Origin: Gemmatimonadales bacterium
GTDB lineage: Bacteria > Gemmatimonadota > Gemmatimonadetes > Palauibacterales > Palauibacteraceae
Direction: 5' to 3'
Assembly (NCBI GenBank): GCA_030636765.1
Contig: DAOVWI010000003.1
Location: forward strand, 1 to 43,932
DNA: 43,932 nt
A model generated the notes under the pieces. It saw nothing but the letters and a program-made list of their open reading frames with translations, was not told where the DNA came from and made no database searches. Below are positions 2,580 to 40,820 of the stretch, piece after piece (positions within the stretch are counted from its first letter, which is position 1; every line of letters begins with the position of its first letter). The position numbers and the translations under genes were made by a program.

Positions 2580-2607
2580 GCCTCCGATGAGCCTGAGCCT
2601 CCGATGA
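2574..2607 (+). repeat. Perfect 17-bp tandem duplication GCCTGAGCCTCCGATGA x2 at the MFP/RND junction
   Basis: Read directly at 2574-2590 and 2591-2607. The first copy contains the MFP stop and the second the RND ATG. Confidence 0.9.
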
Positions 2608-5600
2608 AGATGAAGGGTTTCCGCCTCACCACGCTGGCCGTCGATCATCCCACCAGCGTCCTCGTTCTGACGGCCATCATCATCCTCGCCGGGCTCGTCT
2701 CCTACTTCAGCATTCCGAAGGAGTCCATGCCGGAGATCACCGTGCCCTTCGTCGCGGTGAACACCGTCTACTCCGGCGTGGCGCCGGAGGACATGGAGAC
2801 CCTGATCACGCGGCCGCTGGAGGAGGATCTCAACGAGATCGCCGATGCGGAGGAGATCCAGTCGACGTCGGTCGAGGGCTACTCGAGCATCGTCATCGAG
2901 TTCAGGGCGGGCATGGACATGACCGAGGCGCTCCAGCTCGTTCGGGAGAAGGTGGACATCGCCAAGGCGGATCTTCCCTCGGCGGCCGAGGAGCCGACCA
3001 TCGTCGAGTTCAACCTCTCCGAGTTCCCGATCATGCAGGTGAACGTCTCCGGGGAGTACAGCCTACGCCGGCTGAAGGAGGTCGCGGAGCGTCTGCAGGA
3101 CCGGCTCGAGCTCATTCCCTCGATCCTCGAGGTCACGCTGTCGGGCGGACTGGAGCGCGAGGTGCAGGTGAACGTCGACCTCGCGAAGTTGCAGTTCTAC
3201 AGGCTCGCTTTCGACGACGTGATAGACGCGATCCGGGAAGAGAACCTCACGATCCCGGGCGGGACGATCGACGTCGGCGAGCGGGAGTACCTGGTTCGGG
3301 TGCCGGGCGAGTTCGAGGACACGCGGCTTATCTCGGACATCGTCATCGCGTCGCCGAACGACAGGCCCGTGTACGTCCGGGACGTGGCCGAGGTGGAGTT
3401 CGGCTTCAAGGAGCGGGAGAGCTTCGCGCGCCTGGACGGCAACCCGGTCGTCACGCTTGGCATCGTAAAGCGCACGGGCCAGAACATCATCGAGACCTCG
3501 GACGCGGTGAAGCGTGTCATCCAGGAGGCGCAGGCGAGCTTCCCGCCGACGACGGTCGTGAAGATCACCTCCGACCAGTCGGAGGACATCCGAAGGATGG
3601 TGTCGAACCTGGAGAACAACATCATCTCCGGGCTGATCCTGGTGGTGGCGGTCCTGCTCTTCTTCCTCGGCATCGCGAACGCGTCGTTCGTCGGCATCGC
3701 GATACCGCTCTCGATGCTGCTCTCCTTCAGCATTATGCAGCTCATCGGTTTCACGATGAACATGGTGGTGCTCTTCAGCCTCATCCTGGCGCTCGGGATG
3801 CTGGTGGACAACGCGATCGTCGTCGTCGAGAACATCTTTCGCTTCCTGGAGCAGGGATACGACCGGAAGGAGGCGGCGAAGCTGGCCACCGCGGAGGTCG
3901 CCATGCCGGTAATCGCCGCGACGGCTACGACCCTGGCGGCGTTCGCTCCGATGGCGTTCTGGCCCGGCCTGATCGGGGAGTTCATGGCGTACCTGCCCCT
4001 CACCCTGATCATCACGCTGAGCGCCTCGCTCTTCGTGGCGCTCGTCGTCAACCCGACGATCTGTTCGCTCTTCATGCGACTGGACGGCGATCGGGCGCCG
4101 GGCCTCACACCCGCGGCCCGCTGGTCGCTGATCGGTCTTGGCGCGCTCTCGTTTGCGGTCGTGTTCGCCATGCGGCCGCTCACGGCGGTGCTGCTGGCCC
4201 TGATGGCGGGGCTGCTTTGGGCCTTGCATCGCTGGGCTCTGTATCCGGCCGGAGGTTGGTTCCAGCACACGGCGCTCCCCACCGTGCTCCGGCGCTACGA
4301 GCGGTTCCTCCGCTGGGCGCTGGCGCACCGGGCGCGGGTGATGGGCGCGACCGCCGGGGTCCTGGTCGCTTCGGTATGGGCGTTCGCGGCGTTCAACGCG
4401 GGGATCGAGTTCTTTCCCGAGGACATCCCTCCCGAGACCGTGTACGTCCAGATCGAGATGCCGCCCGGAACGCGGGCCGAGGCCACCGACCAGGTCGTCC
4501 GCCGGATCGAGCGGGAGCTGGCCGCGCTCCCGACCCAGGCGGACTTCCAATCGGTCGTCGCCACGGTCGGGTCGAGCGGGGACGGCGGCTCCCGCTCGGG
4601 CGCGAACGAGGGAACGGTGGCGGTGAACTTCGTCGATTTCGAGCTGCGCGAGCGGGATTCTTTCGAGACGCTCGAGCTGATGCGCGGCACGGTCGGGAGG
4701 CGGATCGCCGGAGCGGAGATAACGGTCGAGAAGCCGCAGGATGGACCGGGGTCGGGCCCGCCGGTCAGCGTCGAGATCGCCGGCGAGGATGACGAGGTGC
4801 TGAAGCGGTTGGCGGATGAGGCGTACCGGACCCTCGCCAACGCGCCCGTGGCCCGGAAGCTGGAGGGGCTCGACAGTGACATCGCGGATGCGCGGCCGGA
4901 GCTGCGCATCGAGGTGGACCGCGAGCGGGCAAGGCTGTTCGACCTGAGCACGGCGGAGATCGGAGCGACGGTGCGGAGCGCGATCAACGGCACCGAGGTC
5001 TCCGAGTTCCGATTCGGAGAGGAGGAGTACGACATCGTCGTGCGGCTCGCCCCCCGCTACCGGGAGGACCTGGACGCGCTTGCCGACCTGATGATCGTGA
5101 CCGAGGACGGGGACCAGGTGCCGCTCTCCTCGCTCGCCAACTGGAGGGTGGACGAGAGCTATAGCGGGATCAACCGGAAGAGCCTCGAGCGCGTCGCGAC
5201 GATCTCGGCCGACGTGCGGTCGGCGTACAACGCGAACCGGGTGCTCGAGGAGGTGCGGACCGAGCTCGCCGGCTTCGCGCAGTCCCTGCCGGCGGGCTAT
5301 ACGCTGCAGTACACCGGCCAGCAGGAGGATCAGGCCGAGTCGGAGGCGTTCTTGTTCGGGGCGTTCCTGATCGCGCTGATGCTCATCGCCCTGATCCTGG
5401 TCTCGCAGTTCGACTCGGTGGTCCGGCCGCTCATCATCCTGAGCTCGGTCCTCCTCTCGACGGCGGGGGTGTTGATCGGACTGCTCGTGTTTCGCATGCC
5501 GTTCGGGATCATCATGACCGGTGTCGGCGTGATCAGCCTGGCCGGCATCGTCGTCAACAACGCCATCATCCTGGTGGACTACATCGGGGTCCTGAGGAAG

Positions 5601-6029
5601 AGGGACGGCATCGACGCGCACGAGTCGCTGGTCGTCGGCGGGATGACCCGCTTCCGGCCCGTCACGCTGACGGCGGTCACGACGGTGCTGGGGCTCACGC
5701 CGCTGGCGATCGGGCTCAACTTCGACTTCGCCGGTTTCTTCACGCGCCTCAGCCCGAACCTCTTTTGGGGCGGTGAGCAGGCGGCGTGGTGGGGTCCGAT
5801 GGCGATCGCGGTCATCGCCGGGCTCACCTTCGCGACGTTCCTCACGCTCGTGCTCGTGCCCGTGATGCACTCGCTGACCGACGACCTGACGACGTTCCTC
5901 GACCGGCATCTGCGGCGGAGCGAGCAGGAGTCACCGGACGAGTCGGGCTCATCGGACGAGCGAGGAGCGGGCTCGCGGGAGCCGGAGGTACGGCCGGAGA
6001 AGCGGGAGCCGGAGCTCGTTACGGCTTAG
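2604..6029 (+). CDS. RND efflux transporter permease subunit (AcrB/AcrD/AcrF family)
   Basis: 1141 aa. TM4 motif LGMLVDNAIVVVENI, GIVVNNAIILVD, RFRPVTLT, and two large periplasmic loops. Confidence 0.96.
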   Translation: MKMKGFRLTTLAVDHPTSVLVLTAIIILAGLVSYFSIPKESMPEITVPFVAVNTVYSGVAPEDMETLITRPLEEDLNEIADAEEIQSTSVEGYSSIVIEFRAGMDMTEALQLVREKVDIAKADLPSAAEEPTIVEFNLSEFPIMQVNVSGEYSLRRLKEVAERLQDRLELIPSILEVTLSGGLEREVQVNVDLAKLQFYRLAFDDVIDAIREENLTIPGGTIDVGEREYLVRVPGEFEDTRLISDIVIASPNDRPVYVRDVAEVEFGFKERESFARLDGNPVVTLGIVKRTGQNIIETSDAVKRVIQEAQASFPPTTVVKITSDQSEDIRRMVSNLENNIISGLILVVAVLLFFLGIANASFVGIAIPLSMLLSFSIMQLIGFTMNMVVLFSLILALGMLVDNAIVVVENIFRFLEQGYDRKEAAKLATAEVAMPVIAATATTLAAFAPMAFWPGLIGEFMAYLPLTLIITLSASLFVALVVNPTICSLFMRLDGDRAPGLTPAARWSLIGLGALSFAVVFAMRPLTAVLLALMAGLLWALHRWALYPAGGWFQHTALPTVLRRYERFLRWALAHRARVMGATAGVLVASVWAFAAFNAGIEFFPEDIPPETVYVQIEMPPGTRAEATDQVVRRIERELAALPTQADFQSVVATVGSSGDGGSRSGANEGTVAVNFVDFELRERDSFETLELMRGTVGRRIAGAEITVEKPQDGPGSGPPVSVEIAGEDDEVLKRLADEAYRTLANAPVARKLEGLDSDIADARPELRIEVDRERARLFDLSTAEIGATVRSAINGTEVSEFRFGEEEYDIVVRLAPRYREDLDALADLMIVTEDGDQVPLSSLANWRVDESYSGINRKSLERVATISADVRSAYNANRVLEEVRTELAGFAQSLPAGYTLQYTGQQEDQAESEAFLFGAFLIALMLIALILVSQFDSVVRPLIILSSVLLSTAGVLIGLLVFRMPFGIIMTGVGVISLAGIVVNNAIILVDYIGVLRKRDGIDAHESLVVGGMTRFRPVTLTAVTTVLGLTPLAIGLNFDFAGFFTRLSPNLFWGGEQAAWWGPMAIAVIAGLTFATFLTLVLVPVMHSLTDDLTTFLDRHLRRSEQESPDESGSSDERGAGSREPEVRPEKREPELVTA

Positions 6030-6037
6030 CGCGGACG

Positions 6038-6173
6038 GTCGACCTCTGCACGTAAGGGGAGGGTGGAGGTTCCTCCGCGCGCCCGCAAATCGCTTGCAGC
6101 ACCACAGCTCGCGGGATCCGGGAGCGACTTATGCGCGCTCCGAAATCCTCCGCCTCCCCTGGGAGAGGTCGAC
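6038..6173 (+). repeat. ~136-bp imperfect palindromic element (MITE/REP-like), copy 1
   Basis: Ends GTCGACCTCT...AGAGGTCGAC. Nested pairings GGGGAGGGTGGAGG/CCTCCGCCTCCCC, GCGCGC/GCGCGC and AAATCGCT/AGCGACTT. An inverted second copy lies at 8708-8841. Confidence 0.88.
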
Positions 6174-6365
6174 GTGCGGTGACGGGGAGCACGGTCCGCC
6201 ACGCCCCTCGGCAACCGAGACGCTTGTGGCGGGGCCGTCCTCATCAAGAGGGCTGCTGGTGGGCCGCCAGCAGCAGCCAGTCGGCAAGCCTTCGCGATCT
6301 CCCGGGCGCCCATCTCCGCGTTCGCCCTTCCGGCCAGCCGCTTGACCAGGACCAGGCGGCTCCCG

Positions 6366-6394
6366 TCGACAGAGTGCCCTCCCGTCCGTACGAT
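6366..6394 (+). promoter_or_regulatory. Putative sigma70 promoter of the DUF3604 gene
   Basis: TCGACA (6366-6371), 17-bp spacer, TACGAT (6389-6394), about 60 bp upstream of GAGG plus ATG 6456. Confidence 0.5.
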
Positions 6395-6455
6395 ATCCGA
6401 ACCTCCGTCACAGGATTCCGTCGAACAAGTCTTTTCACTGACAGCCGAGGTCGAA

Positions 6456-8387
6456 ATGACATGCCTGCTGAGACTCGCGGCTATCTCTCTCCTTCTTCTC
6501 ATCGCTGGTCCCGCTTCCGCGCGGTCCCAGGTTCCCCCGCCACCTGACGGTGCCGCGGCGCTGAACGACGTCTACCGGGGCAGCACGTACTCGCCCTACG
6601 CCGGCCGCAACTTCCCGAGCCGCGTGTTCTGGGGCGACACGCATCTGCACACCGCGTTGTCCATCGACGCCGGGGCATTCGGCAACCGGCTGGGACTGGA
6701 CGACGCCTACCGGTTCGCTCGGGGAGACGAGGTGACCACTTCGACCGGACTGAAGGCCCGGTTGTCCCGACCTCTAGACTTTCTGGTGATCGCGGACCAC
6801 TCGGACATGATGGGCTTCTTCCCTGATCTGTTCGCGGGCGCCGATCATATCCTCAGCGACCCGCTCGGCAGGGACTTCTACGATCGGATCCAGGCCGGTG
6901 ACGGTGTCAGCGTGGCGCTGGAGATCATCAGCATGGCCTCGCAAGGGGACCTCCCCGAGTTCATGGAGGTGGGCTACAGCCCCGACTCGAAGCCCTACAG
7001 GAATGCCTGGCAAGCGACCGTGGACGCCGCGGAGGCGTTCGACGATCCTGGCCACTTCACGGCGTTCATCGGCTACGAGTGGACCTCCCTGGTCCGCGGC
7101 AACAACATGCACCGTGTCGTGATCTACCGGGACGGCGGCGACAAAGGGAGCCAGATGGTTCCCTTCACGATGACCCCCCCGGGAAGCACGAATCCTCGTG
7201 ACCTGTGGCGGTGGCTCGAGACGTACGAGGAGCGGACGGGGGGCGAGGTCCTGGCCATCGCGCACAACGGCAACCTGGCCAACGGCATCATGTTCCCACT
7301 CGAGGCCCAGTACGACGGCCGGGTCCTGGACGAGGAGTACGTCACGACGCGCGCGCGTTGGGAACCCCTCTACGAGGTGACCCAGATCAAGGGCGATGGC
7401 GAAACGCATCCCTTCCTCTCGCCCGACGACGAGTTCGCGGACTACGAGACGTGGGACGTCGGCAACCTGGACGTGTCGGAGGCCAAGACCGACAACATGT
7501 TGGCAGGGGAGTACGCCCGCGAAGCCCTCAAGCGGGGACTGGTGATCGAGGACCGCTTCGGCACGAACCCCTATGAGTTCGGGATGATCGGATCCACCGA
7601 CAGCCACACGTCGCTGGCTACTGCCCAGGAGGACAATTTCTTCGGCAAGCACTCCGGCTACGAGCCCAGTCCGGAACGCATGACTCACCCCTTCATGGCG
7701 ACCGCGAGCGGTACGATCTACGCCTGGCAGCAGGTCTCGTCGGGGCTTGCTGCGGTGTGGGCCACGGAGAACACTCGCGAGGCCATCTTTGACGCCATGG
7801 AGCGGAAGGAGGTCTACGCGACCACCGGCTCGCGGCTGGCTGTCCGCTTCTTCGGCGGTTGGGACTACACCGAACAGGATATGAACAGCCGACAGCCGGC
7901 GTTCGCCGGCTACGAAAAGGGCGTGCCAATGGGCGGCACGCTACGCGCCAGGCCTGCCGGCGCGGGAGCACCCACGTTCATGGTCTATTCCCTTCGGGAC
8001 GTCCAGGGCGCCAATCTCGACCGCATCCAAATCATCAAGGGCTGGCTGGGCGACGACGGTCAGACCCACGAAGTGGTCTACGACGTCGCGTGGTCCGGAG
8101 ACCGGCAGCCTGGGTCCGACGGCAGGCTGCCCCCGGTGGGTAACACCGTGGACGTCGAAAACGCCAACTGGACCAACACGATCGGCGCCGCCGAGCTCGG
8201 TACCGTGTGGACCGATCCGGACTTCGATCCGGATCAGAAGGCGTTCTACTACGCCAGAGTCATCGAGATCCCGACGCCCCGGTGGTCGACATACGACGCG
8301 TTCCGCTTCGGAATCGACCTCCCGGAGGGTGCACCGACGTCGACCCAGGAGCGAGCGTATACGTCACCGATTTGGTACGCGCAGTAA
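6456..8387 (+). CDS. DUF3604 domain-containing secreted protein (PHP-like metal-binding fold)
   Basis: Signal peptide ([15 protein letters not shown]). Motifs [57 protein letters not shown] and [11 protein letters not shown], as recalled for DUF3604. Confidence 0.9.
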
Positions 8388-8440
8388 CCGAACAACCGCC
8401 GAGGCTAGTAGACACAGGTTCCAAGCAGTAAGTAGCGGCA

Positions 8441-8479
8441 AGAGGGCAAAGCCCGCGATTCTCGCGGGCTTTGCCCTCT
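8441..8479. terminator. Perfect 18-bp-stem hairpin, probably a terminator between convergent genes
   Basis: AGAGGGCAAAGCCCGCGA-TTC-TCGCGGGCTTTGCCCTCT, about 54 bp after the DUF3604 stop. Confidence 0.7.
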
Positions 8480-8707
8480 ACAGGGCGAACTTCCTGGGCG
8501 AGGATAGGCGCGATCCGGGCTCTCACGGAAAACACGGAGGTGTGGGACGACGTGCCCACGGCACAAGACGCTGCGGCACAAGCGCTCATTCCCGTCCTGT
8601 CAACTACTGTTATAGTAGATCGATCGCCGTGGCGACGGTCCAAACGACAGGACCGACCCGGTGGCTTCCAGCGGCGCAGTAGACGGCGCGGCTATCCGGC
8701 GCGGTGG

Positions 8708-8841
8708 GTCGACCTCTCTCAGGGAAGGCGGAGGATCCCGGAGCGCGCATAAGTCGCTCCCGGATCCGGCGGGCCGTGGTGATGCAAGCGATTTGCGGGC
8801 GCGCGGAGGAACCTCCGCCTCCCCCACAAGAAAAGGTCGAC
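8708..8841 (-). repeat. ~134-bp imperfect palindromic element, copy 2 (inverted relative to copy 1)
   Basis: The reverse complement of 8708-8816 matches 6065-6173 with 8 mismatches in 109 bp (manual count). Same GTCGACCT...AGGTCGAC termini. Confidence 0.88.
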
Positions 8842-8856
8842 GTACGGACGGTCAGG

Positions 8857-10194
8857 CTAGTCGATCGGGAGGGTTGCGACCACGGTGCGGACGGTGCCGT
8901 CGGGGCCCGTGTCCGTCCACGCCAGGATCACGTCGTTGCCCAGCGCCGCCATGCGGGGAAAGCCGCTCGCCCGGCTCACGTCAGTGATGGCGACGGTCGC
9001 CGGAAGGCTCGCCTCGCCGTCCGGCCGGACACGCCGGGCCCTCACGTCGGCGCCCCGATCCGTGGTCTCGAGCCACACGACCAGCGCCGCCCCGTCCTTG
9101 AGCAGCATGACGTCGACGCGGCCCAGGGGTCTTCCCTCGTCCACCCGGCTCGGCTCGCCGAACGTCTTCCCTGCATCGCCGGAGAAGGCGACCTGCACCT
9201 TCGGCTCGTCGTTCGCGGCGGTGTACCACGCGACGGCGACCCGTTCTTTCTTCGCGGCGACCGCGGGGCCGTTCACGGGGCACGCGGGCATGTACCACCC
9301 ATCGGCGTGGATCGTGGAGGGAGCCGTCCATTCGCTCCCGACCAGGCGGACGACGGAGATGTCCCGGATCTCGCTCTCCGACCGATCCCGGTACACGAGG
9401 ACCGGCCCCTCGGAGGTGAGCGCGGCGGAGGTCTGACAACAGTCGCAGGAGCGGGCATCGAGGAGGGTCTGGCTTCCTGGGGCGCCATCGACGCCGATCT
9501 CCGCGTACCGGAGGGACATGTCGCCCTCGAGCGGTCCGCCCTCGGCCACCTCCGCGAAGTCTCGTCCGTCGAGCCACACGGCCGCCAGAGCGCCATCCGC
9601 CGCCGGGAAGAGGGATACGAAGCCGTGCTCCGTCAGAGTCCCGTCAACGTGGGGCGTCACGGGGTCGCTCCACGAAAGCCCCCCGTCTACGGAGCGGGCG
9701 ATCCGAACGCCGTACGCGTACGTGCCCGGACCCTCGCGCTGGAGCCAATGCGCCGCGAGAGTGCCGTCTGGGAGCTCCACGATGGACGGGAAGTCGGCCC
9801 AGTTCACGAAGAAGTCCTCGCCGCGCGCGATCGTGTGCGGCTCGCTCCACCCTGATGCGCTCAGCTCGGCCATCCGGACGGCATGGCCGCTCTCATCGGG
9901 CTCCTGCCAGCTCATGTAGACGGTGCCCTCGCGGCCTGCCCACAGGTAGGGCGTCATGCTGCCCCGGCCGGTCGGGGGTGGCACCTCCCGCAGCCCCGTG
10001 AAGGTGGACCCGAGCGCGGGGCCCTCGGTCTCGTCCGGGCCGTCGGCCCCGATCCGCCGTTCGCCAGAGGCTTCGCCGCTCGCCTCCGGCCCACACGAGA
10101 GGAGAGCGACGGAGGTCACGAGGATCGCCCCGGCTTGGCTGAGCGGTTGATTCACGGAGAAAAGGCACCTGCGGCACTTCCTGAAGAACGGCAT
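8857..10194 (-). CDS. BNR/Asp-box (sialidase-like beta-propeller) lipoprotein
   Basis: Asp-boxes RSVDGGLSW and FSGDAGKTF, plus FVNWADFP, CDCCQT and CPVNGP; lipobox-like LLSC. Start uncertain (10194 ATG or 10155 GTG). Confidence 0.75.
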   Translation of the reverse strand: MPFFRKCRRCLFSVNQPLSQAGAILVTSVALLSCGPEASGEASGERRIGADGPDETEGPALGSTFTGLREVPPPTGRGSMTPYLWAGREGTVYMSWQEPDESGHAVRMAELSASGWSEPHTIARGEDFFVNWADFPSIVELPDGTLAAHWLQREGPGTYAYGVRIARSVDGGLSWSDPVTPHVDGTLTEHGFVSLFPAADGALAAVWLDGRDFAEVAEGGPLEGDMSLRYAEIGVDGAPGSQTLLDARSCDCCQTSAALTSEGPVLVYRDRSESEIRDISVVRLVGSEWTAPSTIHADGWYMPACPVNGPAVAAKKERVAVAWYTAANDEPKVQVAFSGDAGKTFGEPSRVDEGRPLGRVDVMLLKDGAALVVWLETTDRGADVRARRVRPDGEASLPATVAITDVSRASGFPRMAALGNDVILAWTDTGPDGTVRTVVATLPID

Positions 10195-10259
10195 GGAGAA
10201 CAACTTGCCGGCAGCTGCCGTCGGCCGCAATCAGCGCGCGGGCTACACGGAGGGGGAGG

Positions 10260-40178: not shown

Positions 40179-40820
40179 GTGAGCTCCGAACTGCCCAACC
40201 TGACCATCATCGATCACCCGCTCCTGCGTCACAAGGTGTCCCTGCTCCGGGACGTGAGCACGGAGAAAAAGGAGTTCATGGAGCTGGTCGATGAGATCGC
40301 GATGCTCATGGCGTACGAGGTGACGGCCGACCTGGAGACGGAGGAGTACGAGGTCGAGACCCCTCTGGAGTACACCCGAGGCTACCGGGTGCGGGGGCGG
40401 AAGCTCACGCTGATTCCGATCCTCCGGGCGGGGCTCGGGATGGTGGAAGGGGTCATGCGCCTTCTGCCGACGATGCGGGTGGGGCACATCGGGCTCCAGC
40501 GGGAGCATGAAACGCTTCAGCCCGTGGACTACTACTTCAAGATTCCGCCGCACGCGCAGGAACGGCAGTTCATCGTGACCGATCCGATGTTGGCCACCGG
40601 GGGCTCGGCGAGCGCGGCGATCGCCTTCCTCAAGAACAGCGGTGCGCTGAGCATACGCCTCATGTGCATCGTGGCCGCGCCCGAGGGCGTCCGGAAGCTC
40701 CTGCACGATCACCCGGACGTTCCGGTCTTCACCGCGTCGTTGGACCGGGAGCTGAATGAGCACGGCTACATCCTTCCGGGGCTGGGCGACGCGGGGGATC
40801 GGCTGTTCGGTACGCTCTAG
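40179..40820 (+). CDS. upp: Uracil phosphoribosyltransferase
   Basis: IDHPLLRHKVSLLRD, PILRAGLGM, DPMLATGGSA, GYILPGLGDAGDRLFGT; GTG 1 nt after the selD stop. Confidence 0.96.
   Translation: MSSELPNLTIIDHPLLRHKVSLLRDVSTEKKEFMELVDEIAMLMAYEVTADLETEEYEVETPLEYTRGYRVRGRKLTLIPILRAGLGMVEGVMRLLPTMRVGHIGLQREHETLQPVDYYFKIPPHAQERQFIVTDPMLATGGSASAAIAFLKNSGALSIRLMCIVAAPEGVRKLLHDHPDVPVFTASLDRELNEHGYILPGLGDAGDRLFGTL

Follow-up and report, generated by a model that had tools for sequence, protein, structure and literature searches.

The window analysed here is a stretch of 43,932 nucleotides (nt) from the uncultured Gemmatimonadales bacterium of GenBank assembly GCA_030636765.1 (contig DAOVWI010000003.1, positions 1 to 43,932). 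Its genome, referred to as G000, is a metagenome-assembled genome of 2.3 Mb in 271 contigs, 83% complete and with 67% GC. The window carries two genes that run towards each other, i.e., an AcrB-type RND transporter gene and a BNR/sialidase-like gene, with a DUF3604 gene between them. The DUF3604 gene is bracketed by two inverted hairpin elements, A and B, which are the subject of this study together with the hairpin family to which they belong. All features of the locus are collected in Table 1.

Table 1. Genes, hairpins and other sites of the RND/BNR locus (positions in the window).
Feature	Position	Strand	Remarks
AcrB-type RND transporter gene	2604-6029, stop TAG 6027-6029	+	Pfam ACR_tran, E 1e-206
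Hairpin element A, 'RND-type' subtype	6038-6173	+	sense to the RND gene
Promoter-like site TCGACA, 17 nt, TACGAT	6366-6394	+	consensus match only; upstream of DUF3604
DUF3604 gene, 643 aa	6456-8387	+	Pfam PF12228, E 1e-245
GC-rich palindrome behind DUF3604	about 8448-8479		without T-run; inverted self-match to the G005 locus
Hairpin element B	8708-8841	-	sense to the BNR-like gene; only in the lineage of G000, G005 and L072
BNR/sialidase-like gene	8857-10230, stop 8857-8859	-	weak Pfam match, below cut-off

A repeat search of the window returns the pair as inverted arms of 135 nt that are 86% complementary and have 2500 nt between them. Compared by BLAST, A (plus strand) and B (minus strand) are 88% identical over 136 nt. 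Their global alignment shows 16 differences in 136 columns, with 8 in the best window of 109 columns, which confirms the 8 mismatches over a 109-bp core given in a preliminary description of this DNA; when aligned in direct orientation, just 94 of 142 columns match. Both elements start with GTCGACCT and end with AGGTCGAC. Their termini pair perfectly over 9 bp (GTCGACCTC and GAGGTCGAC), and the entire element is an imperfect palindrome. The GTCGAC found at both ends of A and B is itself palindromic, such that a repeat end and a target duplication are indistinguishable there.

Folding bears out that each copy forms a single long imperfect hairpin, whichever strand is considered (-76.6 to -80.7 kcal/mol, z-scores of -3.4 to -4.9), and none of 200 shuffles matches this fold. 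Folds computed with 45-nt flanks gave spurious outer pairs and are unusable for the outermost hairpin bounds. A begins 8 nt past the TAG of the RND gene; for B, the distance from the BNR-like stop is 15 nt, in the same relative orientation, as had also been described (8-15 bp behind convergent stops). With no T-run after A and B and no call for either in the terminator scan, an intrinsic (Rho-independent) terminator was rejected.

With regard to copy number, A and B are the only copies of their subtype, which we call RND-type, in G000. As comparison set we used 12 genomes of the genus (G000-G011, 71-92% complete) and the metagenome contig L072. A pattern scan over one genome each of 185,579 GTDB species (17 loci) and over JGI metagenomes (10 loci), checked with a model R1 built from six RND-type copies, found no RND-type element beyond the named genomes and L072. 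Thus, the copy-number check put forward in the preliminary description gives two copies in G000, each behind a stop codon, and the subtype at one locus only.

R1 also matches other long hairpins in the genus at E-values of 3e-7 to 8e-2. We consider a second model, R2, built from twelve of these other hairpins and zero RND-type copies. It yields 101 one-strand matches in 11 of the 12 genus genomes, i.e., about 1-16 per genome, which is a lower bound, since 150 of several thousand candidates were scored per genome and many copies lie at contig ends. R2 in turn recovers the RND-type copies on the correct strand (E 5e-5 to 7.5e-3). These moderate scores suggest that the RND-type copies are a diverged branch of the family that would have lost its apical motif. 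Family members are about 135-170 nt long with long, GC-rich stems. The hairpins matched by R1 have in common a core that is strand-specific and surrounds two stems whose internal loops are conserved, and the outer stems vary by locus. In front of some members stands another small hairpin, separate from the element and with a T-run. In the same taxonomic family, R2 matches are present in 13 of 41 genomes and 9 of 20 genera; a sample of the phylum gave matches in 2 of 151 genomes, at low sensitivity (20 candidates scored per genome).

That is, A and B belong, as diverged copies, to an old hairpin-repeat family that occurs in one family of marine Gemmatimonadota. Rfam has no match up to an E-value of 1 within positions 5500-9500 of the window, and on eight family loci it returned nothing on the elements but a tRNA and two chance matches elsewhere. 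Neither the plasmid nor the phage collections hold a match to the family, and full-text literature searches for Gemmatimonadota repeat families found no description. The family thus appears to be undescribed, as had been suspected from the window.

In G000 itself, the sole full copy of the main family (G000:C221:268-438, minus strand, locus L074) follows a gene for ribonucleotide reductase, 9 nt after its stop. Behind groEL of the same genome (G000:C81, about 8690-8770, minus strand, locus L075), a small hairpin with a T-run is followed by the 5' half of a family element only; at the orthologous site, G005 has the full element.

To describe the gene context, 102 copies in 11 species were examined, namely 96 of the 101 R2 matches (five were not fetched) and the six RND-type copies. 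Genes were called with a filter of our own (open reading frames, ORFs, of at least 80 codons, with a GC content of at least 0.78 at third codon positions, GC3, and a higher GC content at first than at second positions, GC1 > GC2). For 93 of the 102 copies, the nearest gene on the 5' side runs into the element, i.e., the element is in sense. A single copy has an antisense ORF, 378 nt off and a doubtful call, and 8 copies, mostly at contig ends, have no call. When upstream proteins are clustered, the 93 sense copies correspond to 32 independent loci, and all 32 are sense. Measured from the stop to where the model match begins, the median distance is 8 nt, and 27 of the 32 loci have a copy within 100 nt. 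The downstream gene may run in either direction. Family members thus closely follow a stop codon on its 3' side and share the direction of the gene before them.

The genes upstream have housekeeping functions and are not related to one another (groEL, tamB, acyl-CoA dehydrogenase, yebC, ribonucleotide reductase, htrA, tonB, atpG, rpsG, rpoB, upp, fbp and others). Copies are located between rpoB and rpoC, between rpsG and fusA as well as between atpG and atpD; as rpoC, fusA and atpD were confirmed downstream, copies at three loci lie inside core operons. At one further locus (L105, L108, L129 and related), the element follows a tRNA gene in sense; this tRNA was recognised by eye from a T-arm-like sequence.

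Given such an orientation rule, inverted pairs are to be expected where genes converge. Converging zincin and vgb-like genes (G003, G010) have a copy each, 105-126 nt apart, and in G011:C36 a single ORF of 173 aa is located between two inverted copies, one of them behind fbp. The inverted bracketing of DUF3604 by A and B is accordingly explained as a by-product of the family's orientation rule at the converging RND and BNR-like genes.

Most copies are most closely related to the one that another species has behind the same gene. Non-orthologous copies have a median identity of 60% and a maximum of 83%, with A and B, at 88%, being the closest pair of paralogues. At orthologous sites, copies are kept across species whose proteins are 60-80% identical. 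In the family core, 16 of 23 pairs are changed on both sides and 89% of cells are paired, a value that 0 of 500 shuffles reach and from which slid controls are far away on the lower side; the underlying alignment was fitted to the model, which favours structure. For the RND type, 9 of 45 pairs are changed on both sides and 89.6% of cells are paired (again 0 of 500 shuffles), based on six sequences and a structure derived from those same sequences. The copies were thus inherited at orthologous sites, and their stems were kept by compensatory changes. On the sense strand, 7.9% of pairs are G-U, compared to 4.3% on the antisense strand, and it is this G-U content only that favours a strand, i.e., the sense strand.

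The gap between the RND and the BNR-like gene differs among relatives. G000, G005 and L072 have DUF3604 with two inverted hairpins, alike in order and orientation; G005 belongs to the genus of G000 with DNA about 93% identical, and L072 is 97% identical to G005. In G002, G008 and G010, a single hairpin right behind the RND stop is followed by an LtrA gene (PF06772). These three genomes have no second hairpin behind the BNR-like gene, whose stop is 5 nt from the LtrA stop in G010 and G008 and about 35 nt from it in G002. The gap is empty (about 40-90 nt) in G003, G004 and G007. It holds a di-haem cytochrome c peroxidase gene in G011 and a sigma-54 activator, a histidine kinase and a Spondin_N-like gene in G006, both without hairpin. 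G009 has the BNR-like gene and no RND gene within 8 kb, and no BNR-like match was found in G001. The varying content indicates that genes enter and leave this gap whether or not hairpins are present.

The single hairpins of G002, G008 and G010, which are orthologous to A, are 72-75% identical to it, and the neighbouring RND gene is 78-79% identical, i.e., hairpin and gene have diverged to a similar degree. A is the resident hairpin of the RND gene, also present in three species that lack DUF3604. Furthermore, A of G000 and A of G005 are 93% identical, compared to 88% for A and B, such that B predates the split of G000 and G005.

Some details of these loci were noted in passing. The RND gene of G002 (L008 3207-5807) has a long run of residues in its middle that is unlike G010, as after a frameshift, which is possibly an assembly error or a broken gene. 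The 1.3-kb LtrA cassette of G010 has a 15-nt direct repeat at both sides (L009 about 1826-1845 and 3121-3135; 15/15 positions, and 14/15 in L039 of G008). The final codons of the BNR-like gene fall within this repeat, as does its stop, and the repeat resembles a target duplication or a duplicated gene end. Around A and B, 9 nt on the left and 6 nt on the right are by eye similar in direct orientation, with the cores inverted. A duplication of the gap with a subsequent flip of the core was dropped as an explanation (local-alignment shuffle test of the 28-nt flanks in G000, G005 and L072, p 0.06-0.77).

Between the hairpins, we find what the preliminary description had listed as a self-contained unit, i.e., a promoter (by consensus match), one DUF3604 gene for a putatively secreted protein (by reading of its N-terminus, which is signal-peptide-like) and a hairpin. 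The promoter-like region is conserved in G005 and L072. The palindrome behind DUF3604 received no call in the terminator scan and stands outside the hairpin family. The DUF3604 protein is 97% identical in G005 and at most 65% identical elsewhere in the genus. DUF3604 forms a multi-copy family in the genus, and outside the lineage of G000 and G005 the best homologues (61-65%) are encoded at other loci. From A to the DUF3604 promoter region, the distance is about 480 nt in G005 (L007 7993-8471) and L072 vs 166 nt in the window (6180-6346); by eye, the extra stretch is of lower GC and has no obvious gene. A short AT-rich palindrome (CTACT, 5 nt, AGTAG; 8604-8618), possibly a protein-binding site, sits within the 230 non-coding nt that separate the DUF3604 palindrome from B.

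In the preliminary description, the pair had been read as candidate ends of a non-autonomous element, a composite that would have captured DUF3604 and could be moved or inverted in trans. Such a composite would agree with two inverted copies of 88% identity, with their perfect 9-bp termini, with A and B being closer than any other paralogues of the family, with the self-contained cassette and with its GC, which is slightly below that of the flanks. The comparison with relatives speaks against it: one end occurs without the cargo and without the other end in the three LtrA species, the three cassette lineages are alike in orientation and flanks, and the gap takes other genes without hairpins. 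The pair is found at no second locus among one genome per GTDB species and the JGI metagenomes, and six DUF3604 homologues at other loci of the genus have no hairpin within about 3 kb. We also checked sequencing data for an inverted or excised 2.5-kb segment, using Logan contigs of 200-500 nt, which show neither transcript ends nor strands. In the assembled orientation, all four junctions (two outer, two inner) are spanned by contigs of the DNA runs X1 and X2, and no contig of three DNA runs has a joint with a strand change or skip at the elements, which is a weak test that rare inversions could escape. In sum, nothing that we found links the hairpins to a movement of DUF3604.

Other observations concern how the hairpins came to their sites. 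In the RND/BNR gap, the empty site of G003 equals the filled site of G010 once the core is subtracted together with one unit of a 10-nt repeat, itself palindromic. This difference fits either an insertion with target duplication or the precise deletion of a palindrome, and no target-duplication rule was found at the other loci. Elements are present or absent at orthologous loci, e.g., G000 has none behind tamB, acyl-CoA dehydrogenase, upp and others. At 20 of the 32 loci, the main stop is TAG, compared to 35% of 1267 long ORFs in G000 (binomial p 0.0016). Among transposases, Y1_Tnp (PF01797) passes the cut-off in 1 of the 12 genus genomes, with other transposase families not searched, and G002, the genome with most copies, has no Y1 transposase above the cut-off.

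For the upp gene of the window (40458-40817), no hairpin stands behind its TAG, and G010 and G011 have a copy 5-6 nt behind the orthologous stop. At several hairpin-free sites, the last 9-15 nt of a gene including its stop are repeated in tandem or a few bases downstream (G000:C103 about 14352, G000:C216 about 3366, G000:C230 about 1704, and behind the RND stop in L035 of G003 and L039 of G008). Such repeated gene ends may be footprints of insertions or of slippage.

Taken together, we regard it as probable that the family is an ERIC/YPAL-like repeat, with which it agrees in size and fold, that is kept as a co-transcribed 3' RNA structure, and that B is a local duplicate of A. The orientation rule, the positions within operons, the long conservation and the conserved asymmetric loops all fit an RNA hairpin that is transcribed together with the upstream gene. 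We infer such co-transcription; the positions between rpoB/rpoC, rpsG/fusA and atpG/atpD imply transcription. Of the two options named in the preliminary description, the 3' RNA structure is thus the one favoured by the wider evidence, if still unproven, and a mobilisation or inversion of the DUF3604 cassette is left unsupported.

Under the RNA reading, the hairpin at the 3' side of a transcript could act as a barrier to 3' exonucleases, as a processing site or as a partial attenuator, and its conserved asymmetric core is probably read by a trans-acting factor. Roles of this type at the level of the message are described for ERIC in Yersinia, with orientation being crucial, and for Correia elements (PMC2229807). 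The family may have spread first as a mobile, MITE-like element (miniature inverted-repeat transposable element) and have been retained later. B would have arisen as a local duplicate of A before the split of G000 and G005, in the orientation that the family rule predicts for the BNR-like gene. DUF3604 would be an ordinary gene, specific to its lineage, in a gap of changing gene content, rather than cargo that the hairpins move or invert.

A bolder version can be offered tentatively. Here, the repeat family would be a dedicated, orientation-locked and protein-bound RNA module of 3' ends in this family of Gemmatimonadota, placed a few bases behind stops, including those within the rpoBC, str and atp operons, where it sets 3' ends or differential stability. 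The RND hairpin would have been duplicated and flipped when DUF3604 came between the converging RND and BNR-like genes, leaving one sense copy per gene. It is conceivable that all of this holds, and we would not count on it.

Several observations weigh against the RNA reading. The gene calls behind the orientation rule come from a GC3-based ORF filter and not from a gene finder. Orthologous copies are non-independent, such that copy counts overstate the evidence and 32 loci is the fair number. Sense and antisense folds are equally stable (31 vs 29 copies, Wilcoxon p 0.5), and for A and B the antisense fold is even slightly more stable. A palindrome that acts at the DNA level would also yield compensatory changes. 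The RND-type copies lack the most conserved apical motif of the family, with their membership given by moderate reciprocal model scores. The RND protein tree (nine rows; G008 omitted for lack of sequence, and the G002 row unreliable due to an apparent frameshift) groups G000 and G005 with G004 and G006 (support 99/96). The hairpin-bearing genomes are thus not one clade, and either several losses or two gains are needed. Finally, contigs of the RNA run X19 cover neither element and are neutral on transcription; one piece of 217 nt covers 6291-6507, and the pieces found inside DUF3604 are short and more diverged.

Furthermore, the TAG excess and the 10-nt direct repeat that distinguishes the filled from the empty site fit a strand-specific insertion, i.e., the orientation rule is possible without any RNA function. 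This leads to the strongest rival, in which the family is a non-autonomous transposable element that inserts site- and strand-specifically by stop codons, preferably TAG. Orientation would then result from mechanism plus purifying selection, the RNA would have no role, and A and B would be two insertions or a local transposition. The presence and absence of elements at orthologous loci, the short duplications of gene ends including the stop and the many copies at contig ends, as is usual for repeats in assemblies, point the same way. A precedent exists in YPAL/RU-2 of Yersinia, described as 168 bp long, not A+T-rich and with target duplications of 3-26 bp at or beside dyad symmetries (PMC2229807). 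On the other hand, no genome holds near-identical paralogues (at most 83% identity outside A and B), copies are kept at orthologous sites across species, and the RND-type subtype is confined to one locus. Outer stems vary and inner loops are conserved, which is the reverse of what is expected for ends bound by a transposase, and a Y1 transposase, from the only transposase family searched, passes the cut-off in just 1 of the 12 genomes. We consider this explanation rather unlikely. As origin and retention, insertion and RNA function are compatible.

It is improbable that the hairpins are plain terminators or structural DNA palindromes that arose independently at every gene end, without common origin. 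Their position behind stop codons and their long, GC-rich stems would be accounted for. However, the stems of A and B are followed by no T-run and are not called by the terminator scan, and the copies between rpoB/rpoC, rpsG/fusA and atpG/atpD are placed where full termination would be harmful. Above all, a strand-specific core common to 32 unrelated loci and to 9 of the 20 genera searched requires common descent. The capture or inversion of DUF3604 by a composite is largely refuted by one end standing alone in three species, one orientation in three lineages and the lack of a second locus in the collections searched, and we give it next to no credence.

What is gained is, first, the removal of a false lead, i.e., an inverted pair around one gene that looks like capture is a by-product of the rule of one sense hairpin per gene end. 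Second, an orientation of 93:1 over 32 loci, conserved and present in core operons, provides a clean system for telling RNA function from strand-specific insertion. Third, the family marks a putative lineage-specific regulatory feature of little-studied, uncultured Gemmatimonadota from cold seeps and sediments.

When compared to known repeat systems, the family differs in its orientation. REP, ERIC and Correia repeats occur in both orientations, and their function is still argued; for ERIC in particular, both orientations contrast with 93 sense copies vs 1 doubtful antisense copy here. ERIC elements are reportedly found in conserved intergenic positions (Wilson and Sharp, 2006, are said to have described this). 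REPIN doublets form long hairpins. From bacterial MITEs, A and B have the trait of terminal inverted repeats on a short non-coding element; they lack the many dispersed similar copies that imply recent transposition, with non-orthologous copies being at most 83% identical. Integron attC sites were rejected: the GTCGAC ends do not correspond to RYYYAAC/GTTRRRY, as had been noted beforehand along with their being unlike GTAG-type REPs, and the two copies are inverted (an integrase gene was not searched for).

Among hairpin-forming repeats, the Correia/NEMIS elements of Neisseria are similar in size (100-155 bp). According to the account in PMC2229807, they are co-transcribed with neighbouring genes, and the stem-loops that they form in RNA are involved when RNase III processes mRNA. 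They are there described with conserved terminal inverted repeats of 24 bp, TA duplications and a high copy number (PMC2229807), whereas the family studied here has variable outer stems and at least 1-16 copies per genome. REP, BIME and REPIN elements are, like our family, extragenic palindromes behind genes, with proposed roles in mRNA stabilisation or termination (as outlined in PMC3733652). The REPs described there measure 20-40 bp and carry a tag, GTAG or CGTC, on one side (PMC3733652), in contrast to 135-170 nt and the GTCGAC ends of A and B. REP systems come with RAYT (Y1) transposases, and here a transposase of Y1/RAYT type is above the cut-off in just 1 of the 12 genus genomes.

The enterobacterial ERIC/IRU elements are imperfect palindromes of about 127 bp and are co-transcribed with neighbouring genes (PMC2229807). 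For Yersinia, the same review recounts from De Gregorio et al. (2005) that the orientation of ERIC decides its effect on the stability of the upstream mRNA (PMC2229807). TA termini and target duplications, as given for ERIC in that source (PMC2229807), are neither of them a rule in our family. YPAL/RU-2 of Yersinia, likened here by description only and with no sequence relation expected, shares with our family a length of about 170 bp, a composition that is not A+T-rich, long hairpins, termini without TA and an intergenic location (PMC2229807). Its targets at or beside dyad symmetries with duplications of variable length (PMC2229807) recall the 10-nt palindromic repeat at the G010/G003 site. 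YPAL is described as recently mobile (PMC2229807), whereas near-identical paralogues are lacking here, and the properties given for YPAL in that description do not include being strictly in sense behind stop codons (PMC2229807). The family is thus a variant of the known ERIC/YPAL/REP kind, set apart by its nearly absolute sense orientation.

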